In this document: positions 4,001-59,281 of the stretch, one piece after another | Layout: each line of letters begins with the position of its first letter | Position numbering within the stretch: the first letter of the stretch is position 1 | From: Yuukianura sp. NJ FZ-2021 | Lineage: Eukaryota | NCBI GenBank assembly: GCA_046563655.1 | Contig: CM102290.1 | Span: forward strand, 15,190,001 to 15,254,000 | Length of the DNA stretch: 64,000 nucleotides | Direction: 5' to 3' | The notes under the pieces: generated by a model | Told to the model about the DNA's origin: nothing | The model's input: only the letters and a program-made list of their open reading frames with translations | The model's database searches: none | Position numbers and translations under genes: made by a program

Positions 4001-4380
4001 ATGTCATATGAATGTCATATGAATGTCATATGAATGGCATACGAATGTCATATGAATCTCTTACGAATCTCATATGAATGTCATATGAATGGCATACGAA
4101 TGTCATATGAATCTCATACGAATCTCATATGAATGTCATATGAATGTCATATGAATCTCATACGAATCTCATATGAATGTCATATGAATGTCATATGAAT
4201 GTCATATGAATGGCATACGAATGTCATATGAATCTCATACGAATCTCATATGAATGTCATATGAATGGCATACGAATGTCATATGAATCTCATACGAATC
4301 TCATATGAATGTCATATGAATGTCATATGAATCTCATACGAATCTCATATGAATCTCATACGAATGTCATACGAATCTCA
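1079..4380. repeat. Tandem satellite, 11-bp unit GAAT(CT/GT/GG)CATA(C/T), about 300 copies
   Basis: Continuous array of gaatctcatac / gaatgtcatat / gaatggcatac variants; many units contain the palindrome TCATATGA. Confidence 0.99.
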
Positions 4381-11410: not shown

Positions 11411-12220
11411 TTACTTCAACTCTTCTATACCCGCCGTGGCAAGGTCGCCCATCTTGGGATATCTTATTTTCCTTTTGTCTACTAATTCCTCTTGTGCCCA
11501 TAAAATGACTTTCAGAAGGTAGGCCAACTTGGACGCACTTTCATCTGAGTTCTGAATTCCAAGGAACGCTGTATTCAGTTCACTCGCAACTTTTTGACGA
11601 TGAGCAGAGGACAGCAGATCTCCAAACGGAGACGTTTCTGGATCTTCAAAGGCCAGAAGAGCCAAAGTTCTGGGAAAAATTGAATCGTTTTAATCGATTA
11701 ATCTCACACTCACACTTATACTAAAAGTAGTGTTGAAAATTAGGATTTTGTGGTACCGTTCGAGTTCTTCCAGGACAGCAGCATTTTCGATTCCCTGATC
11801 AGACTAGTTTTCTTGTGCGAACTTGAGAGCATCATTAACGTTGCGATGACGAATTTGTTCAATTAGATGTTGTTGTGGTAGATGGAAGAAAAGATATCTG
11901 TTGTCCAAGAGTTCTGGTTGATACGAATTAATCATTTCTACGGCTGATCGAATGTCTCCACTCTTGATTAACTCGAGGATTCGAATACGTTGATCCAACG
12001 TTTCCAGGTCAATCCCCGTCTCTGTTCCTGATTCCAACTGAAACTTCGCAGCAGCATCTTTGAATCCTTCAGTAACCAAATAGTTCATGATTAATTTGTT
12101 GACTTCTGCTCTTGGAATCTCCACGTTCTCAATCTTCTCCATCCTTCGACCTCTGGACGAACTGTCTTCCCGTTCTCGTCCACCGATCAGACGAGGCTGA
12201 GATGGTCCACTGCTGGACAT
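11411..12220 (-). pseudogene. GID8: GID8/TWA1 (CTLH E3 ligase subunit; LisH-CTLH-CRA) copy with an in-frame TAG at 11806-11804
   Basis: [82 protein letters not shown]; one GT-AG intron (about 11755-11672) is retained. Confidence 0.85.
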
Positions 12221-12697
12221 TGTCTGAAAAAAATCAAAACATACGTCAATCAAAACGGATACACAGCATTGTCTTTATTTTCAGTGTTCAACCCTTACCT
12301 TCGGTTTTAACAAAAACACAACTTCACGTGGATCCCGATATTCGTTCTAATCACTTAATTAATGATTAATCGCAATTACTAATCGATTTACTAATCTGAA
12401 ACCTCCGAAGTAACAGGAAAACAGGAAAACACAAACAGAAATGACAAACAGAACAGATGACTCGGTTGGGGTAAGGATTAACGAACGTAATTGTAACCGC
12501 ACGGTTGAGTCACTCCAAAATATTAAGTGGCTACAATGAGTGGCTACCCTTTCGGCAACTTATGTTGCCACTTTATGTTAGGGTAGGCTAAAGTGGCTAC
12601 TTTAGCTGCCACTCTGGTGTAATTACCCATTGTAGCTACTTAAACAAGGTAGGGCGATGCTCAAGGGTTGAGCATTTTCTACCCTCTAGTAAGCACT

Positions 12698-19827: not shown

Positions 19828-22800
19828 ATGAGTGGAAATCTGCCAACTTCGGAAGGAAACATGGGGAATGAGCACAGCCAGGATCCCGATGACACAGAGG
19901 GTAATGTCACACACTCCAACTTCATTCTGATTCTGTATCTGTACAATAATTGATGTTCTGCATGTCAATTTGAGATCATGGACATTCATCTGAGGACGAG
20001 AGCAGTGATGGGACTGCGGGTGACAACAGTTGTGACGATGGTTCTGATGACTCCCTCGATGGGACACTGGACAAGTGCCCCATTTGTCTCCGAGTATTTC
20101 GGCAGCAGGAAGTGGGAACACCAGATACTTGTGAACACTGCTTCTGCCTCAAGTGCATCATGGAGTGGGCGGAGGTAAGTCCACGACCACAACGTTTCTT
20201 CGATCCAGCTGACAAATTGAATGTTAACGTATATTTTCGTTTTTAGAACGTCACCACATGTCCAATTGACAGGAAGGTCTTTCACTCTGTCCTTGTGCTT
20301 GATAAAGTACGGGGTCATGTTGTGCGTGTACAAGAATTGAGTCCACCCACTCAACATGCAGATTACTACGATGATTTTTCTGATCCAACGTTCTGTGAAG
20401 TTTGTGGTTGTTGCGATCGAGAGGACAGACTGCTTCTGTGCGACGATTGTGACGATGGGTATCATTTGGAGTGTCTAGACCCCCCTTTGCACTCTGTTCC
20501 GGATGCAGATTGGTGGTGCCCCAACTGTTCAGCTGCCAGAGTACGAGTGAGTCAATTCAAAACTAAATTAGTCCGGATTGTATTTAAATTCATCCACAAA
20601 ACTTGTTTCCTAATGGTTTTGATGGTTTTAGACTCAAAGTAATCTGGACAATGCCAGTACTAGCAACACCTCAACTAGACCCCGATCCAGGATGCCAAGA
20701 ACGGGCCTCAGTCGACGCATTATGCAACGACGACGAAGGGACACTACTCTTGTGAACGTACGGCAAAATAATTATGATTCAAAGCAGTTGCAGGGTCGGG
20801 TAGTTTTTTTCGTTTCAGTGAAAGAAACTGAAATAAATGAAAAAAACTGAAAAATTGAAAGAAACTGAAAAAAAGTGAAATTAACTGAAAATTTCATCTA
20901 TGTTTTTTTCATTTCACTGAAACAAATTGAAAGAAAGTGAAAGAAATTGAAATATTGCATTGAAATATTTCAGCTTATCAGTGAAATAAATTAAAGAAGC
21001 TGAAAAGGTTTATTTCGTTTCATGTATTTTTCAGTTTTTTTTCAGTTTTTTTCATTTTTCACTGAAAAGTGAAATATTTCAGTTCTAACACTGGCAGTTG
21101 GAGTTAACGGAAAGTTTAAACTTTTGTAGCTCTGTTCACCTCACTCTGACGATTGTGAGACGGCGACTAGACGGCTAAGGTCAGAGTCCAGTTCTGCTGG
21201 AAGGAGCAGCAGAAGATCCGTTTCCCGAGGCAGGAGAAGAACCACCTCCAGACGAAATAAGTCAGCCAAAAGATGTCGAGGCAAGAAGAGACGGACTCGG
21301 AAACGTCGCGTTGCCAAGGAACGAAAGCCAGCGACATCGAGAGGGCGCTTGATTCAGCAGCTCGGAATTGTGCCGCCCAGACCAGGCCAAGTCTACGTTG
21401 GTCTTCCTTCCTGTCGACCTTCACACGCTCCCGTCCTGGAACCTACCACTTCTGCCTCTGCCATCAGAACACAACGACATCAGGCAGGAATTGCCCCACT
21501 TCGAATCTACTCTACAGTCAACGACTTGGCAGATTACTTTGAGGGGTGAGTGACCAACTTCTGTTTTAAATTAACATCAAAAACGTAAAATTGACGTTAA
21601 AAAACGTATTTTGATGTAGGAGTTCTGATGAGGAAGCGGGTGTGGGTGTGATGAGACCACAGGGAATGAGAATAAGCGACACTAGAAAGCGTGTTTTAGC
21701 TTCAGCTGCTGCCCACCAGTCGTCCAGTGCCAATATCCTTGGTCCAATTCTGAGTGGCCAACATATCCTCCTTCAAGACAAGAACATGCAAATCTCAAGC
21801 AGTGACGGAAGATTGGTTCCCTCTATTTCAGTGGATGTTGATAAGCTGCTCCTCTCTCCGAATCATGAGAATGACTCGAGTGGGTACGATTCCTTTGGAA
21901 ACAGGGGTTCCCCCGTGTCACGCAGACCAAACATCCTCACTTCAGCCATCACTTCTCCTGGCCAATCAGCTTACGAACCTTCTCGCTCTGGATCTTCCGG
22001 GGACTCCAGTGCTCAGAGTTCCAGTCCCAGCACTTCCAGCACTTTTAGAGCAGGATCTTCCAGTGGAAGTTACAACAATCCCAGTTCATCTTCCTACAAC
22101 CGTGGATCTGAGGATCCCAATGCTTTTGAGGATCTGAGTGGACTGGATGAGGCTGTGAAGTGTGCACAACGGAAGAAAGACAACTCAACTGAAAGTGACA
22201 AGGAAGAGGATGAGTTCAACATCTACAGTGACATCGAAGGTACAAAAACATCACTTTTTCATTTATTTACAAAATGCAACTAATATCTTTAGATTTAATT
22301 TGTGATTGTTTGTTTTAGATGATCCAAGACCCATAACGAGACGGAGTTTGGATGTGAGTGTGGGTGGTGACGTGGATACGGGGACAGTGGAATGTCTGAA
22401 CGATGGTGGCGGTGGGGCAGAGAGCGATGACGAAATGGTCATCGATGAGGCTGAGGCAGCCTCTGCTCAAGATCCAGACAAAAGAAGTGAAGTGGAGTCC
22501 ACAGTCCCATCTCAGTAAGCTTTTTCAAAATAAAAAAAAATGTAATTTTCATCCTTTTTACGAGCGCATATTTTTGATTAACTTTTAGGGGCCCCTTGAG
22601 GGCTCCCTACTTTCTTAAGGTGGTTTTCTATAAAAACTGATTCCACTTCTGATTTAAAAAAATATGCCCTTAAAAATCATGAAAATCACATTTTTTTTTA
22701 ATTTTAAGGGCCCTTAAATCGGGTGTTTGAAAAAAAAATACTATAAAATGTATTTCCAAAAGTACAGTCAGCATTCCAAAGGTTCAAAATTTTGAAAATG

Positions 22801-27480: not shown

Positions 27481-27760
27481 ATTATTGTCGATTTCAGCTG
27501 AGATCGGGGGTGGCGATTCGCTAGGGTTATTGTCGATTTTCAGCTGAGATCGGGGGTGGCGATTCGCTAGGGTTATTGTCGATTTCAGCTGAGATCGGGG
27601 GTGGCGATTCGCTAGGGTTATTGTCGATTTCAGCTGAGATCGGGGGTGGCGATTCGCTAGGGTTATTGTCGATTTCAGCTGAGATCGGGGGTGGCGATTC
27701 GCTAGGGTAATTGTCAATTTCAGCTGAGATCGGGGGTGGCGATTCGCTAGGGTAATTGTT
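27481..27760. repeat. 45-bp minisatellite, about 6 near-identical copies
   Basis: Unit TCAGCTGAGATCGGGGGTGGCGATTCGCTAGGGTTATTGTCGATT, just downstream of the PHRF1 AATAAA. Confidence 0.97.
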
Positions 27761-28180: not shown

Positions 28181-31100
28181 ATGGTTGTGGCGACATTTTG
28201 GGCGACATTTGTCATGTTGAGCCTCCTCGGAATTGAAGTGACCTCTGGTCAGGGCGACACCGTGGTCAACATTCGTGAGTTCATTTTGAGTTTAGATTCA
28301 AATCCGTTTGTCCATCAAAATGGCTGCCTCATGCAACGCATTATTCCGTGGAGACACAAAACACAAACAAAATCAAAAATTTAAAAAGAACCAACTCAAA
28401 ATGGCCTTGCATTTTAGTCGTCGAGGAATCCACGAATAGCATTTTCCCTTTTCCACAATTTTTTTGAAAAATGAAAATATTTTGGACACAAAAGTTGAGG
28501 GACCGATTCAAAAATCCTGACTTTTCTCCTCAAGTTTTTCATTTCACCACTTTGTAGATTCTGGTTTTAAAAAAATGTCCCACTTTTGACATGTTTGAAA
28601 TGATGATTGAAGTTTTGAATTTTCCAGTTTTCATTTACCAAGATGAAGAGTGGAGAAAGTTGTTTGATGAAACCGTGGCCAAGTACTTTTCGCACCATGA
28701 CCAAAGGAATCTCAAAATCAGGGTGGGGAGGGTCCATGCCTTTGATGCCAAGAAGTCCAGCGACTTTGACACGCTAGCCACAGAGTGTAAACATTCAGCA
28801 CAACCTATTTTTATGTAAATAGAATATAACTTTTCATGGTTTTCATAAATATCAATGTTTGTAGTTTGCAAATTCTACGAGGAGGCAATGGGAAGTGATG
28901 CGAAGCCGGACGTGGCCATTGATTTCACGCGAATCGGAACTCCGTCGGAAGCAGTCAAAATGGTTTTGAGAGCAATGCAAATGCCAACAATTGCAGGGAG
29001 TTTTGGACAGGAAGGAGACATCAAGTACTTTCACTCTCAATAATATTACTCTATTTATTTATTATTTTATATTAATTCCCTCTTAGAGAATGGCGTGATT
29101 TGAAGGATGATCAGCATAAGTTTTTGATTCAAATCTCTCCGCCGGCGGACGTTCTCATTCAATCCGTCCGATCGCTTGTAGAGAAGCAAGACATGACGAG
29201 TGCCGTCGTCCTGTTCGACGAGGACCAGTATGGTCAGTACTCCACATTTTCTAAATTTCAAGATTTAAAATTCAAAATTTTAAAATGTTGATTTTTAGAA
29301 ATGTACCACAAGTACAAAGCCCTCCTGCAGAACCTGCCCACTCGTCACCTTCTGACCAAGACAGAAACGAAAGTGGGTGAACTGCGGAAGCAGATTGATC
29401 ACTTGGTTCACGTGGACATTGTCAACTACTTCATCGCTGGAAAAGTGTCGCAGATCACACAAGTTGTCACAGAAGCGAGCAGGGAAAATGTAGAAGATGG
29501 ACCATACTTCAGCGACGAGTTTGCATGGTACTCCATGACCCTGGTAATTCAACACTTAATTGAAATAGTTAATTAAATATTTAATTAGCAAAAGTAATTG
29601 ATAGGTTCCTGGAGAGGAGGAGGTTCCACAGTGTGGTGAATGCGAAGTTGACGTGACGCTCATCCACGTCGTTCCATACGCAGTTCTGGAAATGACTAAC
29701 CCACGCAAAAGGTTCTTGAACCAAACGCTGGGCCCCACCCAAAACGACCCACTCTCACTCTCACACATGTTCTACTTTGACATTGCAGTGGACGCTGTCC
29801 TCGCAATCGGGTGAGACCTTGACCTCGCAAATTAAACACATTTTGAGAGCGGGAAATTGAAAAGTGTGTTTTAAAATTACAGACGCCTGAAGCAGCAGGG
29901 AAAGTACAAGGTGAGTGGTGTGAAGCAGACTTGTGGCTATGACCCCTTGACCAAGAAAGTGAAGGGATACAGTGGAGTGACCTTGGACCTCCTGAAGGAA
30001 TTGAGGAGTGTTGCAGTTGCAGGTCAAAACATGGTGAAGTTGAGGCTGGACAGGGAAGGGAAGCCGGGCAAGAACTACGCCGAGGTCAAAGCCAACATCT
30101 ACCGTCTCGTGTACGACGCCAAGCAGGCAAAGCCCAGGACCAAGGACAGGATCGGCTATTGGACGGCAGATTTCGGATCCACGGAGAGCAGGCAGCTGAG
30201 GATTCAGAATGAAACGCAGCTAGCGGCACACAGGGCCTACACTGTCTTCAGAATAGTCACTGTCGTCGTAAGGGCAAAGGTCAAAGGTCACTCATCATGG
30301 ACTAAACATTTCCTTTTTTTAAAAGCAAGCCCCATTTGTGATGGAATTTGAGAACTGCTCCACCAAGGGGAAGGGGAACAAGTACAAGAACTGTTTCTAT
30401 GGTTACTGCATTGACCTCCTCCACAAGATCACAGAAGATCTCAAGTTCAACTACACGATTCGAGCAGTGGAAGGGTATGGCTACATGAACGACTCTGCAC
30501 CACACAACTGGGACGGAATGGTCCTACAACTGGAGAAGAGGGTACATCTTTTCAAAAGGAATCCAATTTTCTAATCAAATCTAAAACAAAATTTATGTAT
30601 TTTGAAAATTGTCTTTAGAAAGCTGACATCGCTCTTGGTGCGATGTCGGTAATGGCAGAGCGGGAAAGTGTGGTTGACTTCACTGTGCCTTACTATGACC
30701 TCGTAGGAATTTCAATTCTTATGAAAAAACCAAGAGTTCCAACATCACTTTTCAAATTTCTGACCGTACTCGAAAACGAAGTGTGGGGATGCATCTTGGG
30801 AGCATACTTTTTTACCAGGTAGTTTTTGAAAAACTTAAAAGCGTTTACAAAAAAAAAAACCTTTTTTTAAATGTTTCACAAACGTTTATTACAAAAAAAA
30901 ACGTTCCTTAAATGTTTTTAGCTTCATTTAAAAAAAAGCGTTTGTTAAACGCTTATTACAAAAAACGTTTTCTTTAGATTCATTACAAAAAACGTTTCTT
31001 AAAAACGTTTTCTTTAGATTCATTACAAAAAACGTTTTTAAACGCTCTTTTTAGATTTATTACAAAAAACGTTTACAAACGTTTTTTTAGACTCTTATGT

Positions 31101-32599
31101 TTTGAACAGTTTCCTGATGTGGATATTTGACCGTTGGAGTCCTTATAGTTACCAGAACAACCGAGAAAAGTACGAGGACGACGAGGAGAAGCGAGAGTTC
31201 AACCTGAAGGAGTGTCTGTGGTTCTGCATGACTTCCCTGACTCCGCAGGTACTTATACTGCCAGCACATACTGCCAGCACATTGTAGTGGAAGTATTTGT
31301 AGGGTGGAGGTGAGGCTCCGAAGAACCTGTCTGGTCGCCTGGTGGCAGCGACTTGGTGGCTCTTTGGCTTCATCATCATCGCCTCCTACACCGCCAACTT
31401 GGCAGCCTTCTTGACGGTCTCTCGCTTGGACGCTCCAATTGAGTCGCTCGACGATCTGAGCAAGCAGTACAAAATCCAGTACGCTCCTATGCGGGGCAGC
31501 GGAGCTTGGATTTACTTCAACAGAATGAAAAATATAGAGGCACGCTTCCATGAGTAAGATTTTGGAGAGTGAAAGTGTGAAAATTTGTGATTTTGAAGTA
31601 TTTTTGTACTTTTGAGTATTTGGAGGAACATGACGTTGAACGAAAGTCTGAGTGCACTTGAGCGTGCTGAGATTTCTGTGTGGGAGTATCCGGTGAGTGA
31701 CAAGTACACGAGGATGCTTGCAGCGATGGAGGAGAATGACCCACCGTGGAATTTCACATCAGCGATGGAGAAGGTCCGAGCAGTGAACAACGACTCGAGC
31801 AAGGACAGAGATGGATTCGCTTTTCTCGGTGACTTTTTAACGTGGACGGAAGGAATAACTTTGTCACTGTTTAAAAGAATGAAGTGTCAAATTTTTAAAA
31901 TGTAGATGAGGCGACGAACGTGCGATGGCAGACGACGATCAGTTGCGACTTTGACCAGAAGGGGGAGGAGTTTTCTCGGAAGCCGTATGCAATCGCAGTG
32001 CAGAAAGGCTCTCCTTTGAAGGAATCCATTTCACACATGTAAGAATGAGCTAAAAGTTCAAACAGAAAGTGGATTTCCATTTTGAAATGTTTGTCTTTGT
32101 TGAGGATTTTGAAACTGCTGAATCAGCGCACACTGGAGCAACTGAAGGAGAACTGGTGGAGCAACGCCACTTACAAGGTCGTATGTCCAAAAGAGGACAA
32201 CCAGTCTGACGGAATCAGCATTCACAACATTGGTCAGTTTCACTTGTTCCAAATTTTATTTTTGGAATTTTTGAAAAAGTTGTTTGAAAATGTTTTTGAA
32301 ACTGTAGGTGGAGTGTTCATTGTGATTTTTGTGGGGATAGTGATGGCTTGTTTCACTTTGATTTTCGAGTACTGGTGGAACAGGAAGAAGAATCGGACGG
32401 AGGAACTGGGAGACCCACCATCCTCCAACCAATTTACATCCACTGTCCCACCGTCCCCACCGGAAATGGAGAGAGCAAACTTCAACACTCAATACGACAA
32501 GTAAAAGTCACTCTCTTTTTCAGGGTTCAAAATTAATTTGAATCTTTTTGCAGACCACCGGAACGTATTGTGTTGCCATCCGTTGAGAATTGCTGGTAA
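28181..32599 (+). CDS. Ir25a: Ionotropic co-receptor IR25a paralogue 1 (most derived S2), 16 coding exons
   Basis: Signal peptide, ATD ([14 protein letters not shown]), S1 [78 protein letters not shown]4 [11 protein letters not shown]; open through all exons. Confidence 0.93.
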
Positions 32600-33251
32600 A
32601 AAGAAGATCCTGGACTCACTTTTAACTGTTGGAATCTAATCCTTAGTTTGCGGGCTAAAAGTGAAAGTTTAGTTTTGAAATGTTAGTTGAAAGTTAGACT
32701 TTGAATTCATTTGGAGTGAGTAGTGATTCACCCAAATAAATGGAAACATGTACTTTGGAAATAGCATGCTTCAAGTCCACTTGAGTATTTCTACGAAATC
32801 ACAAAAAATGTCAGACTTTCACTTGCGGACGCTACTTTTGGAGGGAAGGGAAGAGAAAGTTGATTTTGTGTGAGTTTAGAGAGACAGAAGTTGGACAAGT
32901 GGAGACATGCTGGGAAGTATTGAATAATTGAAACGATGGACAATTGTGTGGTTTGGTTGTCACTCCGTCACCACCATTTCCTCAAGTGGACATCCGAACT
33001 GGATCCGTTTTTGTAGTTCCTTTAAATCAAACATCCCCACTCACTTTCTCCTCACTTTCCTTCCTTCCCTCAGTCACACTTATTTCACTTTCCAGTTCAA
33101 GCACTGCGGGTCAACAGTTTTTTTAAGGTCATACGTCACTTTTCACAAAAAATTTGGGAGGGTGCTTCTGAATTTGCGAAATTTTGGAACCGGTTAGTTA
33201 CAACGCAAGAGGAAGTTTGAAGCATTGGATTTCTTAACTTCAAATTTCAAA

Positions 33252-36200
33252 ATGCAATTCCCAGCATCACTTTCAGTCGTAGTCACTTCACTCACGTTTG
33301 TCCTCGCAATTGGAGTGACCAGAGCAGCACAAGAAGATGACACAGTTGTCAACATCCGTAAGACTTTTTTCAACGTCGCATTTTAAAATTATTTTCAGCT
33401 AGGAAATCTCAATTGTTCACTTTCTACAATTTGAAAGTTTCAATTTAAAAGAAAAATGGAACGCCAAAGTAGTCTGTTTGAAGGTTTGTGCATTGTGTTT
33501 ATTAAGAATTCAAAGGAAAATGGAATCGTGACTGAAAGTCGGAGAGGAAATTGGGCAGCATATTGGCACATTTCCCAATTTCATCCAAATTGTTCCATGG
33601 AATTTCACTATAATGGCACGAAATTGGACAAGCTCATTCTAGCGTCTCATTTTTTGAAATTCCAATTTAACAAATTTTGAACAAAAAACTTTGAATTCTT
33701 TCAGTTTTCATTTCGCAAGACTTGGAGGGGAAGATGCTATTTGAAGCTGCTCAAAAGTACTTCAAGGACACTCCTAATTTCAAAATCAAAATCGGGAAAG
33801 TTCATTTGTTCGATGCCAACTACAACGACTCTGTCAAACTAACAACCGCATGTAACTTTGTCATTTTGTTTCAAAATTATAAAAATGACTCTAGATTAAA
33901 AGTTGGCCTGTTTTGTAGTTTGCAAGGCGTACGATGATGCGATGACAAGCGGAGACAAGCCGGATGTGGCCATTGATTTTACGAGATCCGGAATTGCGTC
34001 AGAGGGCGTGAAGATTGCACTTGCAGCGATGCAAATGCCAACGATTGCAGCCACTTTTGGACAAGAGGGAGACATCAGGTAAACTTTTAGTTCTTTTAGT
34101 TTTTGAAGTGATGTGTAAAATTTAATTTGTGGACAGAGAGTGGCGTGGGTTGAACGACGCACAGCAAAAGTACTTGATCCAAGTGTCTCCGCCGGCGGAT
34201 GTGCTCATCCAAGCAGTGCGCTCAATCGTCGAGAAACAAAACATGACGAGTGCCGTCGTCATGTTCGACGAACAGCAGTACGGTAAGTCCTCACACTTTC
34301 ACTTTGACCTTTGACCTCAAAAAGTTAAGAATTTGAGTTAAATTGTGAACTTTGTTTAGAAATGTACCACAAGTACAAGTCTCTTCTGCAGAACATGCCG
34401 ACACGCCACCTTCTGACCAAAACGGAAACTGCTCCTGACAAATTGGCCTCGCAAATCGATCGGCTGGTTCACGTGGACATTGTCAACTTTTTCATTGCGG
34501 GGAACACTGAGCAGATCACAGAAGTCATCTCCATTGCGAGCAAGGAGAAGGCCAAGGACGGACCGTATTTTTCTGATGAGTTTGCGTGGTACTCCATGTC
34601 ACTCGTAAGATCCAAACTCACAAATAATTGGACTCCCGCCCTTTCCGTCTAAAACGAAACGGACTTTCCTTTTTTCCGTTTCCGTTTTTTGAATTTTTTT
34701 TGAAACGGTACCTTTCGTTTCGTTTCCGTTTTCGCCAAAAAACAAAACGAAAACGAAAATCAAAAGACGGAAAAACGGAAAGCAGAAAAACCGGAGAAAA
34801 TGTTCCTTTTTTGCGACACCCCGTACTGAAATTTTGGGAAATTAAAAATTAAACTTTAAATTTATAGTTCATCCAAACTATTTTTCCATAGTTGGAATAA
34901 CAAGAAGTGGATTTTTGAAAAGCAGAACATGAAATCTAATTTTTGAAATTTCATTATCAGTCAACCGCTTTACCGTTTTGAAAACGTTTTTCATTCCGTT
35001 TTGCCTCCTACCGTTCCGTTTCGTTTCCGTTTTTAGGAAAAAAAAAACGAAACGCACGACGGCCGCCCTAACAAATACATGAATATTAAAAAGTGAAATG
35101 GAAATGACTTTGAGTTTGTAGGTGCCTGGAGAGTTGAAACTGCCGCAGTGTTCTCTGTGCGACGTGGAAGTGTCGCTGGTCCATCTTGTTCCTGACCCCA
35201 TTCCCATCGGAAACACACGCAAAAACTTCCTCACAGGTCAAATCAAGACGAATGACCTCTCTCTGACTCAGATGTTCTACTTTGACATCGCAGTCGACGC
35301 CATTCTGGCAGTTGCGTAAGTGCATCTCAAAATGTCAAGGTGGCCTTTGACCTTGAGCTGTGTTTGCAGGTCCATGAAGAAGTCGAGCTTGTACAGCCTC
35401 AACAACGACAACAACAGTTGCAAGCTGTATGCGAAGGACAGCAGACTGCCTGCCTACCCCACACTCAAGCTGGACTTGCTGGAGGCATTCCGAACTGCGA
35501 GTGAGGACAACGGAGTGCCGTTTCACTTGGAGGGCAAAACAGGAAGGAACTACCCCGAATTCAGCGTCTCCATCAAGCGACTCACGTACGAACCACACAA
35601 AGCAGCTCCCAAGTCAACAGAGTTCATCGGAAAGTGGACTGCAGGCTTCTCGGAGGGGAATCTCATCCAGTACGACAAGGGCAAGGACTTGGTCGCACAC
35701 ATGGCGCACACTGTCTTCAGAATTGTCACCTACGTCGTAAGTAAGGGGAGTAAATCCGGATTTTTGACGGATTCGGATTCTTCTAAATCCGGATTTCAAA
35801 AAAATGGAACACGGATTTTGACGGATTTTTGAATCCGTTTGAGGGTACAGACAATTGAAAAATTGACGCCAAAAACTGAAAAATTGAGTTTATATAAAAA
35901 AATGTTTTTCAAATTAAGTTAATCAAAAAGTAACATTCCTGAAATCCACTATGAACTTTTTTTGGTACTTGGAGTTTAAAGCCAACGTTGTTCATAATTT
36001 TGAAAAAAAAACTAAACAAATTGTTATTAGGAAATACTATGTGTATTCTAAAATCCGGATTTAAATTCGGATTTTTTTAATAAAAATCCGTCAAAATCCG
36101 AAATCCGGATTTCGAGAAAGACGTGACGGATTTACAACCCTAGTCGTAAGCCAACTCCACTCGCACTTTGGCCTTTGACCTTTCTCTTTTCAGCAACCAC

Positions 36201-38221
36201 CTTTTGTGATGGAACTGAAGAACTGCAACTCGAGTGGGAAGGAAAACAAGTACAACAACTGTTTCTATGGTTACTGCATTGATCTCCTGGAGAAGATCAA
36301 AGCAGAACTCAAGTTCAACTACACCATTCGAGCAGTGACTGATGGCTATGGCTACATGAACGACAGTTATCCACATGAGTGGAACGGAATGGTCAGAGAA
36401 CTCAAGGACAGGGTCAGAAATTTAACAGAAATTTTTAGAAATTTGGTTTGTTTCAAAATGAATTTGAGATTTTCAGAGAGCGGACATTGCCCTTGGTGCG
36501 ATGTCGGTAATGGCAGAGCGGGAAAGTGTGGTTGACTTCACTGTGCCTTACTATGACCTCGTCGGAATTTCAATTCTTATGAAAAAACCGAAAATTCCGA
36601 CGTCACTTTTCAAATTTTTGACGGTCCTTGAAAACGATGTGTGGATGTGCATTTTAGCAGCTTACTTCTTCACAAGGTTCTGCTTCAAACAAACTTTTTA
36701 AAAATTTGTTCTGGTCAACGTTTCAGGAATATTTTCTAAAAAGTTACGTTTTGAACAGCTTGCTGATGTGGATATTTGACCGTTGGAGTCCTTATAGTTA
36801 CCAGAACAACCGAGAAAAGTACGAGGACGACGAGGAGAAGCGAGAGTTCAACCTCAAGGAGTGTCTGTGGTTCTGCATGACTTCCCTGACTCCGCAGGTA
36901 CTTATACTGCCAGCACATACTGCCAGCACATTGTAGTGGAAGTATTTGTAGGGTGGAGGTGAGGCTCCGAAGAACCTGTCTGGTCGCCTGGTGGCAGCGA
37001 CTTGGTGGCTCTTTGGCTTCATCATCATCGCCTCCTACACCGCCAACTTGGCAGCCTTCTTGACGGTCTCTCGCTTGGACGCTCCAATTGAGTCGCTCGA
37101 CGATCTGAGCAAGCAGTACAAAATCCAGTACGCTCCGATGAAGGGCAGTTCAGCCTGGATCTACTTTGACCGCATGGCGCACATCGAACACCGCTTCTAC
37201 GAGTAAGTTCCTCAGAAATGGACTGATGAACTGATGAAATGAACTGATGACTGATGTAGGATTTGGAAGGACATGAGTTTGAATGACAGCATGAGTGACT
37301 TTGAGCGGTCGCAACTCGCAGTGTGGGACTACCCGGTGAGCGACAGATATACGAAGATGTGGCAGGCAATGATGGAGAACAGTCCGCCCGACAACTTTAC
37401 AGAGGCGGTGGATCGAGTGCGAGCTGTGAACCACAACGACTCTTCCAAGGAGAAAGATGGATTTGCGTTTCTCGGTAAGTGTGCGACCGGAAGCGGGAGT
37501 ATAGGAGTCAAAATGACGAAAGACTGTTTGTTGTTTGCAGGAGATGCGACTGACATTCGATTCCAAGTGCTTACAAACTGCGATTTGCAGATGATCGGAG
37601 AAGAGTTTTCTCGCAAACCGTACGCTCTAGCTGTACAGCAGGGCTCGCCACTCAAAGACCAGCTCAACGACGCGTAAACTATTTGCTTGTTTGACCTCAG
37701 CCAGTTCAAAAGTTGAGTTTATTTTTGTGTTTTTAGGATTTTGAAGTTGTTGAACCAGCGTTACTTGGAGCAACTGAAGGAGACGTGGTGGAACGAAAAC
37801 AAGCTGAAGGTGAAATGCGAGAAGGACGACAACCAGTCGGACGGAATCTCCATCCACAACATTGGTCCACTCAATTTCATAATTTTGAAATGTTTTTTGA
37901 ACATGTTTTTGAAAATATTTTGACTGGTAGGTGGTGTGTTTATTGTAATTTTCGTGGGGATTGTGATGGCGTGCATCACTCTTCTGTTCGAGTACTGGTG
38001 GTACAGGAAGCGCGGTGTTGTGCAGGAAATGCGAGAGATGCCACTCCCTCCGTCCAAGGAGTTTGGGGCAACCCCACCCATCGACAAAACAAACTTCAAC
38101 ACTCAATATGAAAAGTAAGCCTTAACTTATTTTCCACTTTTCAGTTTTTAGTTGATTTCTTTTGGTTCTTAGACCAGGAGCAGAGAAGACAAGTTTACCA
38201 TCAATTGACAACGCCTGGTAA
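33252..38221 (+). CDS. Ir25a: Ionotropic co-receptor IR25a paralogue 2 (canonical LBD), 16 coding exons
   Basis: Same exon structure; retains the canonical [20 protein letters not shown] and [38 protein letters not shown]. Confidence 0.96.
34628..35070. mobile_element. hAT-like MITE (AAACG-rich) in intron 5 of IR25a-2
   Basis: Ends in GCCCTA; AAACG/CGTTT subterminal repeats; flanked by ACAAATAA / ACAAATAC (7 of 8); orthologous introns in copies 1 and 3 are only about 60-70 nt. Confidence 0.7.
35742..36142. mobile_element. hAT-like MITE (ATCCGGA-rich) with perfect 8-bp TSD GTCGTAAG at an IR25a-2 exon/intron junction
   Basis: TAAGGGGAGTAAATCCG ... CGGATTTACAACCCTA; GTCGTAAG at 35734-35741 and 36143-36150. 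Confidence 0.9.
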
Positions 38222-38915
38222 AGAATCAGTGGAGTGGCGTAGTTGCTGAAATGAGAATTTAATAAAAATTCCAAGTGTAGTCACCTGGAGTTTAAATTTT
38301 AGCTCATAGCTCTGGTATTAAATCACACTGTACTCTAAAAATTTTAGCTCATTTTTAATTTTTTTAAAAAAATTTTTGCATACTTTTGCAAGTTCAGAAC
38401 CGTCGAGCTTAACTCTCTATCACTTTTCATTACCGAATACCGAGATGAATTTTCATTTTTTTTTTAAAACTTTTGAAATTTTGAAAATTGTTGAGAATTG
38501 GTAAGTTGGTGTTTTTGGTTGGTTGTTTGGCTGTGACCTTTTGACCTTGTGGTGGAAATCCATGTACTTGTTGTTGGCGTGTGAAGAGGCGGAGTAGATA
38601 TTCATATTTCCTTGTCCAAGATGGAAGTGGAAAGTTGGTGGTAAATAATTGATGAACTGTGGACAATGAATTGGTCCTGTCATATCGTGTCAACCCTCCA
38701 GTGGGACACGAACCAAACGGGCACTTAAATCCACAGTCCCACTTCCAACTGCGTCCCACTTTCCCTCTAACCACCAACATCAACTTCACTTTCACAAGGA
38801 CACAACTTTCTCCTCACAACTTTTTTTTGACGCTAACTTCACCGCTCCAAACATTCCAAACTTCAAAATTTGGCACCAACTTTGACATTTAGTGCAAAAC
38901 TTTGGATTTGAGAAA

Positions 38916-41900
38916 ATGGTGCCTTGGGTGGGGGTGAGTGGTCTCCTGCTCCTCACTTTGACCTCCACTTTTCACTTAGCTTTTGGTCAGAAGGATGAAG
39001 TTGACCTCAACATTTGTAAGTTCTCAAACTACATTTATCCCTTCACAAAATCACTTTTTCAAAAACTTGAAACAGAATCTTTAAACTTGGGATTTTTTGT
39101 TCTAATTGTGAAACCTTGTGAAAGAATGTGTTTGTACTTACGTTAGTTAGTTAACTAGCGTGGCATTAGATTAGTAGAATTTTCTTTTGAAAAGAGTCAA
39201 GTAGGCTTCATTTTGAGTAAAACCAAGATGGCGGAGAGGGAAGCGTCCAAGGTTTTCCATGGACACGGACAAATGGCATCACAATTAAAAATTCAACGAA
39301 ATTTGAAATGTGTCGCAAACATTGGGGGTTTTAGATTGGCGTGACACTTATTGGCAGTTGCTTATGGCAAGTCATCAAACTTCGTCTTAACCAACACGAC
39401 ATCTCAAACATCATGACTTTTTCAATTTTCCAAAAATGTACCATTTTGAGAAAATTTTTATTCCATTCACCTCTCCTTGTATTTGTCTAAATCATAGTCA
39501 AGTTTCAATTTTCAAAAGGTGGAAACTGTTGAAAATGAAAAGTTTACCTTCTATTTCAATTTCAAAATATGAGTTTGGAAATGTATGAAACTTTTTGTTT
39601 TTAGTTTTCATTTTCCAAGAAGCCCATTTGAAACCGCTGCTTGATCATGCTGTCAAATTTGCAACTGAAAAACTGGGCGTGAAGGTAGGGAAAGTCCACG
39701 AATTTGACGCCAACTACAATGACTCTCTCAAGCTCACTAATGCTTGTAAGCAACTTTTCCAATTTCAAAAAAAAAGTTTGAAAAGTAGGATTGTATAAAA
39801 AGGAAGCGTACTTATTTGTTAGTCTGCCAAAAGTACGGTGAGGCGATGAGTGGGCCGAACAAGCCTCACATTGCCATTGATTTCACTCGAATTGGAATTC
39901 CGTCAGAGGGCGTCAAAATCGCACTTGCGGCCATGCAAATGCCAACGATTGCAGCAACATTCGGACAAGAGGGAGACATCAGGTATGAATTCACGGTTTC
40001 CGGTCACTCATGGACGGATATTTGTGGACGGTTTTTAACGCAGTGCAATAATGTCCATTCCGTCCATTTCTGTCCACCCGTCCATTTGTGTCTGTAAGTG
40101 GAAAAGTTGGGTGATTCCTAAGTTTGATTTTGCAGATCCTGGCGTGACTTGAACAAGAAGCAGCAAAAGTACTTGATCCAAGTGCCCCCTCCGGCAGACG
40201 TCATCGTCCAGTCAGTGAGGACGATTGTGGAGGCCATGGACATGACGAGTGCTGTCCTCATGTTCGACCCAGACCAATACGGCAGGGATTGAATAAAATA
40301 TATAAAATAATTATACAGAATTATATTTTGATGGAATGATATTACAATGACTTTAGAGATGTACCACAAGTACAAGGCTCTGCTGCAGAACCTGCCGTGT
40401 CGCCATTTGCTGAGCAAGACAGAGACGGAAGTGACTAAACTGCAAGGACAGATCTATCGACTGGTGCATGTGGACATTGTCAACTACTTCATCGCAGGAA
40501 AGGCTGCTCAGATCACAGAAGTCCTCGCAGCAGCCTCCAAGAGAGACGCCGCAGATGGACCCTGGTTCTCCGATGAATTTGCATGGTACTCCATGACACT
40601 CGTAAGTCACTCCCTTGACCTCCAGGTCACCGCTTGACCCCTACAGGTCAACACTTTTGTCTCTCTTTTCCAGACGCCGGAGGAACCCTTTCCCACATGC
40701 AAGTACTGCGAAATCGAGGTCACTCTCGTCCACATGCGTCCCAAACCAATTCCGTCCAACAGACGCAAGGAATTTCTGCACGAAGCCCTCAAACCCACCA
40801 TCCTCTCTCTCACTCACATGTTCTACTTTGACCTCGCAGTGGACGCCATCATCGCAGCCAAGTAAGCATGGACGGCAATGGACGGATCTTTATGGACGGA
40901 TTTTTATCCACGACACAAACGCCACTTTCCTCCCTCAAATATCCAAATTGTCCACAAAGATCCGTACAAAAGCGTCTACTTTAAAAATTAAGCTGAAAGA
41001 GTGTAAACTTGGAAATGTTTTTAGCCAATTGAAGAAAGAGGGCAAGTACGACAATCTGCGACTGGACAGGAACAACTGCACGGCTTACGACGCAGGCGTC
41101 AAGGGAGGTTTTGACGCTCACGACTTGAACCTGTTTCCGGAATTCCAAAAGGCAGCAAAGGACAACATGCTCAAATTCCACTTGGAAAGTGGACTCCCCG
41201 GCAAAAACTACCCCACCTTTGAGCTGGAGATGGTTCGCCTCAACTACTCCACCAACAAAATAGACGGAGTGAGGGACAATATCGGGACTTGGAAGGCGGG
41301 ATTCGACACTCCGCAGAAACAACTCTCCTTCGAAAAGGGCAAGGACCTGGACAATCACAGGGCGCACACCGTCTTTCGAGTCGTCACTTACGTGGTAAGT
41401 CCAAGGGCAAAGGGCTCTCTAACAAGTACTTGATTGTTTCCACTTGGGACAGCAAGAGCCGTTCGTGTTCTACAAAGAGGGATGCAACAACTCTGGAAGG
41501 GAGAACAAGTATGTCAACTGTTTCTATGGTTACTGCATTGATCTCCTGGAGAAGATCAGAGAAGATCTCAAGTTCAACTACACCATAAGGAATGTGTCTG
41601 ATGGGTATGGGTACATGAACACGTCGGAACACGATCCAGACCACAAGTGGAACGGAATGGTCTTAGAACTCAAGGAGAGGGTACCACTTTCCCAAATTTA
41701 CATTTTCATTTCAATTTCAGTTTTCAATTTCAAAATTTGGTTTGTTACAAATTGAATTTGTTGAGTTTTTCAGAGAGCTGACATCGCTCTTGGTGCGATG
41801 TCTGTGATGGCAGAACGGGAAAGTGTGGTTGACTTCACTGTGCCCTACTATGACCTCGTAGGAATTTCAGTCCTCATGAAAAAACCAATAGTGGAAACGT

Positions 41901-43529
41901 CACTTTTCAAGTTTCTAACAGTACTGGAAAATGACGTCTGGATGTGCATTTTAGGCGCCTACTTCTTCACAAGGTTTCAATTTTTACAAGAGTTGGTTTG
42001 AACAAAGTTTAAAAAACGTTTCAACTTCTTTTTAAAACGTTCAGTTTCCTGATGTGGATATTTGACCGTTGGAGTCCTTATAGTTACCAGAACAACCGAG
42101 AAAAGTACGAGGACGACGAGGAGAAGCGAGAGTTCAACCTGAAGGAGTGTCTGTGGTTCTGCATGACTTCCCTGACTCCGCAGGTACTTATACTGCCAGC
42201 ACATACTGGCAGCACATTGTAGTGGAAGTATTTGTAGGGTGGAGGTGAGGCTCCGAAGAACCTGTCTGGTCGCCTGGTGGCAGCGACTTGGTGGCTCTTT
42301 GGCTTCATCATCATCGCCTCCTACACCGCCAACTTGGCAGCCTTCTTGACGGTCTCTCGCTTGGACGCTCCAATTGAGTCGCTCGACGATCTGAGCAAGC
42401 AGTACAAAATCCAGTACGCTCCGATGAAGGGCAGTTCAGCCTGGATCTACTTTGACCGCATGGCGCACATCGAACACCGCTTCTACGAGTAAGTTCCTCA
42501 GAAATGGACTGATGAACTGATGAAATGAACTGATGACTGATGTAGGATTTGGAAGGACATGAGTTTGAATGACAGCATGAGTGACTTTGAGCGGTCGCAA
42601 CTCGCAGTGTGGGACTACCCGGTGAGCGACAGGTACACGAAGATGTGGCAGGCAATGATGGAGAACACTCCGCCTGAAAACTTTACTTTTGCCGTGGAGC
42701 GAGTTCGGGGAGCCAATAAGAGTCAGGCGGAGAAGGAGAAGGACGGATTCGCTTTTCTTGGTCAGTCATTGCTTAAAATTGTAAAAACATTTGACATTAC
42801 TTTGAGAACTGATTTGGAAATTGGATTTTGAAGATGAGGCGACGAATATAAAGTGGCAGACGGTGATCAGTTGCGACTTTGATCAAAAGGGGGAGGAGTT
42901 TTCTCGGAAGCCGTACGCAATCGCAGTGCAGAAAGGCTCTCCTTTGAAGGAATCCATTTCACACATGTAAGAATGACCTAAAAGTTGAAAGAGAAAGTGG
43001 ATTTAAATGTCTGTAGTTGTGTATTTGTTTAGGATTTTGAAGCTGTTGAATCAACGTTACTTGGAGCTGCTGAAAGAGAACTGGTGGAACAATGCCACTT
43101 ACAAGAAGCAGTGTCCAAAGGAGGAGAATCAGTCCGATGGCATCAGCATCCACAACATTGGTACTTTCAAATTTGTAAAAAAAAGGATGAAATTTGTTAA
43201 TTTTGAATGTTGTAGGTGGTGTTTTCATTGTGATTTTCGTGGGGATTGTGATGGCTTGTTTCACTTTGGTGTTCGAGTACTGGTGGTACCGCAAGAGAAA
43301 CGTGAGTGAGGAATTGGCAGAGATGGCTCTGCCTCCACCCAAGGAATTTGGATCCACCTTCACAACCACGCCTGCTCCAACCATCGAAAAAACCAACTTC
43401 AACACGCAATACGACAAGTAAAGAAAAAAAAACACTTTTTCATTTTGTGGAATTGTGCTCAAAAGTGTAACTTTTATTTGTAGACCGCCCGAGCGCACCA
43501 CTCTGCCATCCATTGAGAATGCTTGGTAA
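38916..43529 (+). CDS. Ir25a: Ionotropic co-receptor IR25a paralogue 3 (mosaic S2), 16 coding exons
   Basis: Same exon structure and motifs; intron 4 needs a GC donor (40282); ends LPSIENAW*. Confidence 0.93.
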
Positions 43530-51525: not shown

Positions 51526-53652
51526 ATGTCGGAAGGAGTGGGGGTGACGATGGAGGACATTCCAGTTCTAACCAATGGATCCAACGACGAATGCAGTGCT
51601 GTCATGACCAAATTCATCGCAAAGGTAATCTTTCCATTCCCACAACACCATTTTACAAGTTGGGAATTGTCATTTTGTTCTTGTTTTAGAACGAGAAGAG
51701 AGTGAAGTTGGATGAAGTGTCGCAGGAAGTGAAAGAGGCCCTTTGCCAAGGGATTCTGGCCAGGATGTCCCAACCAACAACTACACCAGCCTTGGTCAAC
51801 CTTCTCCTCAACTCCCTCAGAATACTCTCGTAAACCACACTTTACAATTTCAAATCAACGAAACACTAAACGTTTGACCTTGTGATTAGTCGAGAGCTGT
51901 CCACCTTGGATAAAGTCATCACAGAAGATCACATCCAAACTATTCTCAAAGTGGCCAAACTCAAGTCCAGCCATGAGTTCCCCAACTGTGCACAGTCTGG
52001 TCAGTACGTTGGAGTTAGTCCTTAGGATGAAACGTAAATTTTGGTTGTTTTTCAGAGTCACTGGAAGCACTCAAGGTCATTTTCAACATGACTTTTCAAA
52101 GCGCAGTCCTCCGAAGGAAGTTTGTGTCCAGTGGTCTCCTGGAGCGTTTGGTCGGAAACGTCGAATCCCAGAGTCCCTTTGAAACCAAGTACTTTGGAAT
52201 GCGGATTCTGTTCATCATGACTGCCCTGCTGAGGGACTGTGTGTAAGACTCCATTCCACCAATTAATCAACTCCAGGACTCAATTACTTTTTGTTTTAGT
52301 CCTAAGGTGAGGAAGGAGCTGAAGGGAGTGACTGTTCTGATTCGGCATTTGAATTCCATGGACTGGACAAAGGAGTTGGAGGATGAGACGGTGGATTTCG
52401 TGTCAGAAGTGTTGAAAGTTCTGTACAATCTGCTCTACAATCCACTGGGAAATGAAAGTACGGGAGATTCGGAGGAAGAGGAGCAGAAGATGGCCTTGGA
52501 TTTGGTCAAAGGGATGTTCCTAAGATACCTCAAAGTCCACACCAACAGAGACGATATCCAGAGGTACTTTAACCCAATTTCTAATTAGACTACTATAAAC
52601 AAATCCTGATTCCTGATTAGTAATTCCTCATTTTGTTTTTTGTGTAGTCATGCGATTGATTTGCTGAATGTGATTCCACAAGAGATGTTTGGTGAGTTGG
52701 TAGAGGAGAAGGGAGAGTGCGAGTTCCAGTACGAAGGGCATGACATGGGGGCCATCGAAAGTCTCGTCATTTTCCTGGACAGACGCCTGGACATCAAACC
52801 CGTACGATCCACTTACTTTCTATGTAGAATCTTAATTTTAATTTGTTGTTTTGCAGGGCCCGAAGAGTGGATCAGTGACTGAGCTTTTGTCTCCAGTTCT
52901 GTCAGTGCTTGTGCGGCTTGCGTCGACTAGTCGCCTTTGTCGCAAGTACTTGAAATCCAGGATTCTGCCGCCGTTGAGGAAAGTGGATGTTTTGCAGCGA
53001 CCGGAGGTGGGGAGCACACTGAGGAACAAACTGTGTGTCCTCATGACGTCCCCCGCCAGTCCAGTCACCCACCTTGTCTCCAACCTCCTCTTCATTCTAG
53101 TCAAGGAAAATGGTAAGGAAGAAAACATCAACTTTAGTTTGGATTACTCAATCCTTAAGTGTCTGTCTTTTTCAGTTCAGCGACTCATCAAGTACACGGG
53201 GTTTGGAAATGCTGCTGGGCTCATGGCCAACCGCGGCCTATTTGGAGGGGGGAAACCCCCTCCAACTGGACGTTACTCGTCGGACTCCGAAGACTCAGAC
53301 ACAGAAGAGTACAAGGAAGTGTCCCATCTGCAAGTTGAAATTATTATTTTATATTCTAAATTATATTTTAAATTATATGAAATGATTGTTTAGTGTGAAT
53401 GGATTCGGGTGGATTGAGCCTGAGCATCCTCCCCCTTGTGCCGGCATGACAGAGGAGCAGAAGGAAGTGGAGGCCATGAAGTTGGTCAATGCCATTGACA
53501 AGTTGAACAGACACCAACTGATCCAGCCCCTCCAAGTGGGGAGGGACGGCAGACTCCAGCCACTGGAACACGTCACTCAACTCCTGGACACTGCTGGAGA
53601 CAACCTCATTCGCACCACACAACCTCCAGACAGCGACTCAGACTCCGCTTGA
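51526..53652 (+). CDS. RIC8: Ric-8/synembryn G-alpha chaperone and GEF
   Basis: LRILSRE, EALKVIFN, ILPPLRKVDVLQRPEVGSTLRNKL, IKYTGFGNAAGLMANRGL, YSSDSEDSDTEEY, GMTEEQKEVEAMKLVN. Confidence 0.96.
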
Positions 53653-58462: not shown

Positions 58463-59281
58463 TATGGAGGGATATTAGTAGCTAAACTAATTAAACTTTT
58501 TCCCCGCCAGTTAAAGTTTCTCCAATTAAAAGGTTGCCCTTTCGCCAATTAAACAAAATTAATCTAAATAATCAATAATCTAATATATAAATAATTATTT
58601 AATAATTATATAATAATTATTATATAATATCATTATATTATAGGCAGTGTTAGAACTGAAATATTTCACTTTTCAGTGAAAAATGAAAAAAACTGAAAAA
58701 AAGTGAAAAATACATGAAACGAAATAAACCTTTTCAGCTTCTTTAATTTATTTCACTGATAAGCTGAAATATTTTAGTGCAATATTTCAATTTTTTTCAC
58801 TTTTTTTCAATTTGTTTCAGTGAAATCAAAAAAAACATAGGTGAAATTTTCAGTTAAATTCACTTTGTTACAGTTTCTTTCAATTTTTCAGTTTTATTCA
58901 TTTATTTCAGTTTCTTTCACGGAAACGAAAAAAACTACCCGACCGTTAAATATATACAACACTGATTATAGGTTAGGTAGGTATTATTATATTAATATTA
59001 TTATACTAGCTTAATTTAATTTACAGAATGATTAAAATAAATATGACATAATTTGGGTGCCATTATATAACATATGCCCGGTATCACCCTTGAGTATTTT
59101 TGTGAAATCTATTGGGAAGAAATCTTACGTTTACCCGATTAACTTTTCACCGACTTAGTGCCAGTTAAAATGGATTTTTTTTTGCCAATTAATTAAATTG
59201 GCCAAAGTTAACCTTTTTTAATTGGGGAAACTAGTTAGTGGGGAAAAATGTGATTAGTTTTGCTACAAATATCCCTCCATA
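58463..59281. mobile_element. About 820-bp element with about 90-bp imperfect TIRs, possible TA TSD
   Basis: TATGGAGGGATATTAGTAGCTAAACTAAT..TTTTTCCCC versus GGGGAAAAA..ATTAGTTTTGCTACAAATATCCCTCCATA. Confidence 0.75.
58645..58947. mobile_element. MITE family D, second copy, nested in the TIR element
   Basis: Reverse complement of 20791-21093 with scattered substitutions. Confidence 0.9.

Follow-up and report, generated by a model that had tools for sequence, protein, structure and literature searches.

The window analysed here is a 64,000-nucleotide stretch from Yuukianura sp. NJ FZ-2021 (contig CM102290.1, positions 15,190,001 to 15,254,000, forward strand). Between ~28.2 and ~43.4 kb, its + strand carries three tandem genes, modelled as copies A, B and C of IR25a, the most conserved ionotropic receptor (IR) co-receptor and one that is usually single-copy. 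An earlier note on this DNA had drawn attention to a pore-coding block that is nearly identical in the three genes, intron included, while their extracellular parts diverge. We find that silent sites and intron sequence within the block are indeed shared, that its boundaries are sharp and that site patterns along the genes form a statistically supported mosaic. The best account, which we consider very probable, is interlocus (ectopic) gene conversion, by which three tandem genes of ancient duplication pass short patches of DNA among themselves.

Gene models and the shared pore tract

The three units were first visible as direct repeat families (spacings ~5.05–6.0 kb) and as self-BLAST diagonals. 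Models were built from open frames, from tblastn matches to IR25a proteins of springtails and insects, and with a solver for GT-AG junctions that required phase conservation; they predict three intact genes on the same strand, of 15 exons apiece, with uninterrupted open reading frames (ORFs). Copy A (28181–32504, +) is predicted to encode 956 aa plus stop with GT-AG at all junctions, from exons at 28181–28274, 28628–28786, 28865–29024, 29087–29232, 29299–29543, 29605–29810, 29883–30267 and 30326–30541 (exons 1–8), and 30619–30818, 31110–31248, 31303–31553, 31617–31828, 31906–32038, 32105–32232 and 32308–32504 (exons 9–15). Copy B (33252–38118, +; 945 aa plus stop), the most canonical of the three models, has exons 1–8 at 33252–33357, 33705–33851, 33919–34078, 34137–34282, 34360–34604, 35122–35315, 35370–35736 and 36194–36412, followed by exons 9–15 at 36477–36676, 36759–36897, 36952–37202, 37260–37474, 37541–37673, 37737–37864 and 37931–38118. 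Copy C (38916–43421, +; a predicted 949 aa plus stop, again with an intact ORF and with GT at 13 of 14 donors) comprises 38916–39015, 39605–39745, 39823–39982, 40136–40281, 40357–40601, 40674–40861, 41025–41394 and 41453–41680 (exons 1–8), then 41774–41973, 42045–42183, 42238–42488, 42546–42760, 42834–42966, 43033–43160 and 43216–43421 (exons 9–15).

Over the three models, 41/42 donors are GT and 42/42 acceptors AG, with conserved phases. The sole non-GT donor belongs to copy C intron 4 (40282–40356), which begins GCAGGG where A has GTCAGT and B has GTAAGT; the splice site may be weakened, or the intron may be of the GC-AG kind. The least certain acceptors are both in copy B, at exon 7 (35370) and exon 13 (37541 or 37544). 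The latter is a NAGNAG tandem (GCAGGAG) whose upstream option yields the canonical FAFLGDATD, with a Gly codon absent from A and C. Intact ORFs, together with nonsynonymous divergence (dN) well below synonymous divergence (dS) outside the tracts described below, suggest that all three copies are functional.

Assignment to the family follows from several searches. Pfam Lig_chan matches exon 11 (E = 1.6e-19) and Lig_chan-Glu_bd matches exon 9 (E = 1.1e-10); exons of the amino-terminal domain (ATD), scanned one by one, gave no Pfam match, short single exons being a weak query. In alignments with solved kainate and AMPA receptor chains (GluK, GluA), exon 11 corresponds to M3, with the SYTANLAAF stretch, and to the beginning of S2. 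A protein search with this exon returned 674 matches and, among the best 120 of the 674, nearly all named ones are IR25a, at 82–89% identity. Over their full length (905–964 columns) the three copies are 57–66% identical to the IR25a proteins of Allacma, Orchesella and Folsomia, copy B being the closest (64.5–66%).

The core of the shared sequence is a 374-bp tract, 31114–31487 in copy A, which runs from the 5th base of exon 10 through intron 10 to the first 185 nt of exon 11. In the protein it covers the last part of M1, the pore loop (M2) and M3 (SYTANLAAF), and reaches into the beginning of S2. The tract aligns without gaps to 36763–37136 in B and 42049–42422 in C, with identities of 373/374 (A–B), 373/374 (A–C) and 372/374 (B–C), so that the earlier description of blocks differing by one or two bases was accurate, as were its coordinates to within 1–4 bases. 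Only two sites vary: B 36855 (G>C), which is private to B and synonymous (CTG>CTC), and C 42209 (C>G), which lies in intron 10, is private to C and is the C/G site that the note had recorded. At the 5′ side, B also differs at bases 1 and 4 of exon 10 (36759 and 36762), exchanging Phe for Leu, whereas A and C agree from 31107 (C 42042) onwards, at 380/381.

Intron 10 itself (A 31249–31302, B 36898–36951, C 42184–42237; 54 nt) is inserted immediately after the pore-loop Gln codon of TPQ|GGG and is identical at 54/54 positions between A and B and at 53/54 in the other two pairs. It contains a 13-nt tandem duplication common to all three copies, a rare change whose sharing protein-level selection cannot account for. 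Its GC content (0.43, against a median of 0.27–0.32 for introns) ranks 1st in A, 3rd in B and 4th in C among 14 introns. The edges of the tract are abrupt. The 5′ edge falls 0–7 bases from the intron 9 acceptor; the 60 nt beyond the core match at 21–37 positions on the 5′ side and at 38 on the 3′ side (A against B and A against C), and the exons and introns on either side are 42–88% identical.

Two further patches are each specific to one pair of genes. B and C continue to agree beyond the core, giving tracts of 36763–37381 in B and 42049–42667 in C (615/619 identical), of which 37137–37381 in B is common to C alone. This extension takes in the remainder of exon 11, the whole of intron 11 (B 37203–37259) and the first 122 nt of exon 12. 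Intron 11 is 57/57 identical between B and C and 27/57 between either and A; in the 60 nt after C 42667, identity to B drops to 37/60. Just past the core, the S2 sequence of copy A is strongly derived, sharing 35/63 aa with Allacma compared with 56/63 for B and C. The second patch joins A to C over exon 13 and intron 13 (A 31906–32104; C 42834–43032) and looks older. Nucleotide identity in exon 13 is 122/133 for A–C, 77/133 for A–B and 75/133 for B–C; dS is 0.26 for A–C and saturated for the other pairs, and intron 13 is 51/66 identical between A and C.

Silent sites, introns and mosaic patterns

Could conservation of the protein explain such identity? Per-exon estimates (Nei–Gojobori) argue that it could not. 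Exon 9 (A 30619–30818, B 36477–36676, C 41774–41973), which encodes the S1 lobe and the start of M1, offers a control within the genes themselves: it equals the tract in protein conservation (dN 0.043–0.056), and it shows no recent conversion. Its dS is nevertheless 0.60–0.97, against 0–0.04 in exon 10 and 0 for B–C in exon 11, and conserved residues use the identical codon in 40–42 of 59 cases in exon 9 as opposed to 44–45 of 45 in exon 10. Because silent divergence is high where the protein is equally constrained, the identity of the tract is not a product of protein-level constraint, in agreement with what the note had proposed for silent and intron sites. Background dS ranges from 0.8 to saturated in exons 1–7 and 12–15, so dS is not equally low across the whole gene, as simple recent duplication would have it. 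The ATD is as divergent as had been described: nucleotide identity over exons 1–7 is 42–79% (the three peptides quoted in the note all come from exon 7, of A, B and C), and introns 1–9 are 33–75% identical over few alignable columns, most being unalignable.

Permutation tests place the tracts far outside expectation. The longest identical runs in the concatenated exons are 227, 326 and 380 nt, while the maxima in 2000 column permutations were 45, 40 and 52 (0/2000 each). Our own version of a Sawyer-type test, using 1037 polymorphic sites among 2786 ungapped exon columns and 10000 permutations, gave longest concordant fragments of 24 for A–C and 49 for B–C (0/10000 each; permutation maximum 12). 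Site patterns differ significantly from one part of the gene to another (chi2 = 229, 28 df, p = 2e-33), as judged from 15 of 17 segments after dropping two with fewer than five informative sites. Across ATD exons 1–7 they are near-star and homogeneous (AB|C 199, AC|B 154, BC|A 169; p = 0.09). The second part of exon 11 and the first part of exon 12 then favour BC|A (61, against 2 for AC|B and 0 for AB|C), and exon 13 favours AC|B (50, against 5 for AB|C and 3 for BC|A). Together with the sharp boundaries, these tests and switching patterns lend strong support to the gene conversion that the note had suggested.

The arrangement implies at least three conversion events of two ages, which makes 'recurrent' a fair description. 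A recent transfer of ~619 bp between B and C and a recent transfer of ~381 bp between A and C would together leave exon 10, intron 10 and early exon 11 virtually identical in all three genes; the A–C transfer would count separately, as the agreement of A with C begins at 31107 and B departs from both at 36759 and 36762. An older A–C event would cover exon 13 and intron 13. The note had also called the conversion domain-restricted, and here the data part from it: the exon 13/intron 13 patch lies outside the pore region, and the B–C tract runs through S2 sequence to about half of exon 12.

An assembly or polishing error, in which reads mapped across paralogues and copy-specific variants were overwritten, has to be weighed against conversion, as the 374-bp repeat recurs at ~5.3–5.6 kb spacing and exceeds short read length, and the read evidence is at contig level only. 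We compared the window with Logan de Bruijn contigs (k = 31) from four runs, three of them (X1–X3) from one sample and the fourth (X4) under another organism label and study; the contigs carry no depth usable as copy number. These were built independently, and those of all four runs, the second label included, break at the same boundaries. The starts of one X3 contig (31458) and one X2 contig (42393) both fall 30 nt before the 3′ boundary, within the tract, which is what a k = 31 graph gives when it branches exactly at that boundary. A 378-nt X4 contig matches 31114–31478 with 0 substitutions and 13 extra letters. Since the added length equals the 13-nt unit of intron 10, it may represent a third copy of that repeat, whose number may then vary between organisms. 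The two private variants persist inside the block, the tract length varies by pair (374–381 against 619 bp) with base-sharp edges, and the window is free of N. With flanks only 55–65% identical, polishing could have erased a few variants at most and could not have created the pattern. We therefore regard an artefact as very improbable. One X1 entry (depth 174) joins intron 9 of B to intron 9 of C (36704 to 41996) with 10 other letters between, the jump being close to one repeat unit in length. Unequal crossing-over that produced a B/C fusion haplotype could account for it, as could an artefact of the graph.

Several points weigh against conversion, or limit how far it can be pressed. The independent reads are represented by contigs only, in which variants were judged among 40 of the 452 rows listed, so some copy-specific variants may have been erased, and X1–X3 may be the source sample of the assembly itself. 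For A–B the longest concordant fragment is 8, a marginal result (223/10000), which follows from the three-way-identical tract being nearly without polymorphic sites. GC content at third codon positions (GC3) is 0.72–0.75 inside the tracts and 0.62 outside (Fisher p = 0.043, 0.0035 and 0.0024), consistent with GC-biased conversion, but the excess is modest and the unconverted exons 7 and 14 have similar values. The evidence comprises three paralogues of one haplotype, and the placement of the tracts may be neutral or selected.

Two other routes to shared sequence were considered. Unequal crossing-over alone is rejected, as every tract gives way to diverged sequence at both of its ends; cDNA-mediated conversion is rejected, as the intron is retained.

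Selection acting on the nucleotides themselves would be a different way to hold silent and intron sites constant, be it through RNA structure, a mirtron, a non-coding RNA embedded in the block, or a sequence complementary to an editing site in the Q codon of the pore. Intron 10 follows the pore-loop Gln codon, which we take to align with the Q/R editing site of AMPA receptors, and Q/R editing in AMPA receptors requires an intronic complement. The X4 block also has 0 substitutions in 365 nt where the other seven listed contigs of that run have 64 in 3274 (Poisson P = 0.0008). Set against the gene-A-side contigs only (7/791; 3.2 expected), this zero is weakly surprising (P = 0.04), and it is not significant under a rough estimate of ~130 effectively neutral sites. 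Folding gives the idea no help: the 381-nt block has z = +0.28, with 63 of 100 shuffles folding at least as well, and intron 10 folds no better than shuffles either alone (z = -0.55) or with 20-nt flanks (z = -0.78). For copy B intron 11 the value is z = -1.51. Rfam has no match in the tracts, the sole match at E <= 1 in 16 kb being a sub-threshold SNORD56-like hit at 39488–39558 on the minus strand. Explanations by RNA structure, mirtron or Rfam family are thus rejected on folding at shuffle level and the lack of any tract match. Nucleotide-level selection would also leave the pair-specific sharing (B–C in intron 11, A–C in intron 13) unexplained, and we judge it extremely unlikely.

Tract placement and age of the triplication

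Conversion as we envisage it would proceed by double-strand-break repair off a paralogous template; this step, like the direction of transfer, is one that we infer. Purifying selection on a near-invariant pore would keep enough nucleotide homology to seed and propagate heteroduplex, and each conversion would restore perfect homology, making the process self-reinforcing. The short intron 10 need have been carried over only once and would afterwards pose no barrier. Tracts would halt at intron 9, whose length varies and which bears repeats, and the copy A tract would halt where the S2-coding sequence of A has diverged. Intron 9 measures 291 nt in A against 82 in B and 71 in C, much of the excess coming from a 40-nt tandem repeat (3.5 copies) at 30961–31091. 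The placement of the tracts would on this account be a by-product of homology rather than an adaptation. The 3′ end of the tract in copy A may reflect simple heterology, or selection against overwriting the diverged S2 of that copy, of the kind modelled by Innan (as presented in the review PMC3966226).

The protein encoded by the core changes little across hexapods. It is identical to that of Allacma at 108/109 aa and to those of Orchesella and Folsomia at 105–106 of 108–109, and Zootermopsis and Drosophila differ at few positions (alignment judged by eye). Purifying selection therefore explains the constancy of the protein without any conversion, and conversion at this locus changes silent and intron sites only, plus the one Phe/Leu edge position. 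The note had held that conversion keeps a common channel module in place; this part of its reading is not supported, since purifying selection alone holds the segment near-invariant.

The same observations bear on an adaptive constant-region design, in which selection would favour conversion, or converted haplotypes, because the three co-receptors must have an identical pore and assembly module in common even as their extracellular domains grow apart. The tract does span the M1 end, M2 and M3 exactly, the ATD exons are very divergent (dN 0.13–0.69), and the derived S2 of copy A beyond the tract would fit Innan-type selection against conversion (PMC3966226). Yet conversion alters only silent and intron sites in a segment near-invariant anyway, exon 9, though under equal constraint, has not been homogenised, and S2 exons are converted too. 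Diversifying selection in the ATD is not seen: the proportion of nonsynonymous differences (pN) is below that of synonymous differences (pS) in 45/45 exon-by-pair comparisons, although saturation leaves little power. Exon 7, for example, has pN 0.39–0.43 against pS 0.54–0.70, with dS saturated and three sequences only. An adaptive design is in our view unlikely, and conversion guided by homology has no need of it.

How old are the copies among which conversion would act? We built a tree from exons 1–9 (597 columns; LG+G4, quick search) with 17 rows, namely the three copies, 3 springtail proteins and 11 insect proteins chosen from 126; Allacma was cut to residues 641–1584, and IR8a and other ionotropic glutamate receptors were left out. 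A, B and C form one clade (support of 99 in the Shimodaira–Hasegawa-like approximate likelihood ratio test, SH-aLRT) within a springtail IR25a clade (SH-aLRT 100), on terminal branches of 0.26–0.43, as long as those between springtail orders. Whole-protein identity is 67–71% among the copies and 68% between B and other springtails. The copies being as far apart as B is from other springtails, the triplication appears to be old; the DNA probably comes from a springtail, since among named proteins the nearest to these copies are IR25a of springtails. A search with an ATD exon found springtail proteins at 69–72% and fragments at 68–77%, with two remoter full-length matches (one from the wasp Orussus) at 39–44%. 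Searches with B exon 5 and A exon 13 returned springtail proteins and metagenome fragments (66–83%), and in these no second species had recognisable A, B and C orthologues.

Exon 13, part of the S2 lobe, occurs in two types that complicate this history. B (37541–37673) has the canonical type, also present in insects, and matches Orchesella at 40/44 aa, Folsomia at 39/44 and Allacma at 25/44. A (31906–32038) and C (42834–42966) have a derived type and resemble Allacma instead (33/44 and 32/44 aa). Among the 126 proteins Allacma alone shares the derived type, to which the A exon 13 search adds three metagenome fragments at 72–83%. The exon types conflict with the N-terminal tree, which leaves Allacma outside the A/B/C clade. 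The triplication may predate the split from Allacma, Allacma may have further copies, or the two types may descend from ancestral alternative exons. Taken furthest, the first option would make the triplication much older than the N-terminal tree suggests, with very long concerted evolution and with selection shielding the ATD and the exon 13 types; the N-terminal 'species clade' may then itself be a product of old concerted evolution. This extended version strikes us as rather doubtful. Were it true, springtails would use several IR25a co-receptors that have the same pore and differ in their extracellular portions, and the locus would amount to a natural experiment showing what has to remain common among co-receptors.

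The surroundings of the cluster contain several other repeats and genes. At 27482–27759, ~400 bp upstream of the copy A start codon, a 45-nt unit is repeated in tandem (6.2 copies, 98% matches). Introns 5 and 7 of copy B are long (517 and 457 nt, against 58–72 nt in A and C). Contig word depth rises to ~5–40x that of neighbouring bins, with many loose ends and joints, at 34408–34941 and 35476–36543 (B introns 5 and 7) and at 38146–38679 (part of the B–C spacer); these stretches are probably insertions of dispersed repeats or small transposons. A 3.3-kb satellite at 1080–4380 has a basic unit of 11 nt and higher-order periods of 44, 55 and 66 nt. Either side of the cluster, 37.5 kb apart, stands a 300-bp inverted pair of 95% identity (20794–21093 and 58645–58944), which may be copies of a dispersed element. 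Upstream, an exon at 11807–12274 (-) encodes LisH plus CTLH domains; downstream, one at 52842–53390 (+) matches Pfam Ric8/synembryn (E = 1.6e-31). A Pfam scan of seven further long open frames of the window gave no match.

Comparison with gene families known for conversion

As a mechanism, gene conversion belongs in the textbooks, and the IR25a copies add an example. The titles and abstracts searched contained no report of gene conversion among IR25a copies, and at least 6 of 7 papers in which both 'IR25a' and 'gene conversion' occur make no connection between them there; in passages of one, PMC11526382, the terms are likewise unconnected. Duplication of the co-receptor has a parallel in the dipluran Campodea augens, for which four Ir25a copies are described (PMC6938034): there, as at this locus, an IR co-receptor that normally has one copy has been duplicated in a hexapod that lives in soil and is ancestrally wingless. 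The relevant passage of that account makes no mention of a tandem arrangement, gene conversion or a mosaic.

For the study of chemosensory evolution in basal hexapods, the locus is of interest because its three intact tandem IR25a paralogues have strongly diverged ATDs and ligand-binding domains that have diverged in part. The contrast between exons 9 and 10, equally constrained as proteins and opposite in their silent sites, makes a teaching case for separating purifying selection from conversion. In practical terms, trees of IR25a paralogues drawn from the channel region or the S2 exons will mislead, and short-read assemblies and variant calls need care in the 374–619-bp block.

The human HBG1/HBG2 pair has a bounded conversion tract that includes intron sequence. 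It resembles IR25a in its tandem duplicates, in a sharply bounded tract with identical introns and silent sites, and in diverged flanks. HBG1 and HBG2 are two young duplicates, whereas the IR25a cluster has three copies, a saturated background and tracts of different ages.

The closest analogue is found in the protocadherins. In fugu protocadherin clusters, the homogenised region exceeds 99% nucleotide identity, silent sites included, with raised GC3, and this is attributed to repeated regional gene conversion, viewed in terms of constant and diversifying parts (PMC1852091); the conversion study of Noonan et al. 2004 is cited or summarised in the same paper and in PMC3966226. Both systems consist of tandem neuronal-receptor paralogues with a homogenised region, a divergent N-terminal extracellular part and raised GC3. 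The constant/variable arrangement that the earlier note saw in IR25a is therefore an idea already described for protocadherin clusters (PMC1852091, PMC3966226), and its adaptive form is not needed here. In protocadherins, homogenisation is confined to stretches inside single large variable exons, and there are also constant exons that are truly shared. The IR25a genes number only three and are each complete, their tract extends across an intron, and purifying selection already holds the converted segment invariant.

Limits set on conversion by selection are illustrated by RHD/RHCE and by Innan's two-locus model of duplicates, as reviewed in PMC3966226. Like IR25a, the RHD/RHCE genes form a patchwork in which exons with copy-specific function stay diverged and their neighbours are homogenised. 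The RHD/RHCE case, as presented there, rests on population polymorphism; for IR25a, read from one haplotype, selection against conversion in the S2 of copy A and in the ATD would be the corresponding, inferred force.

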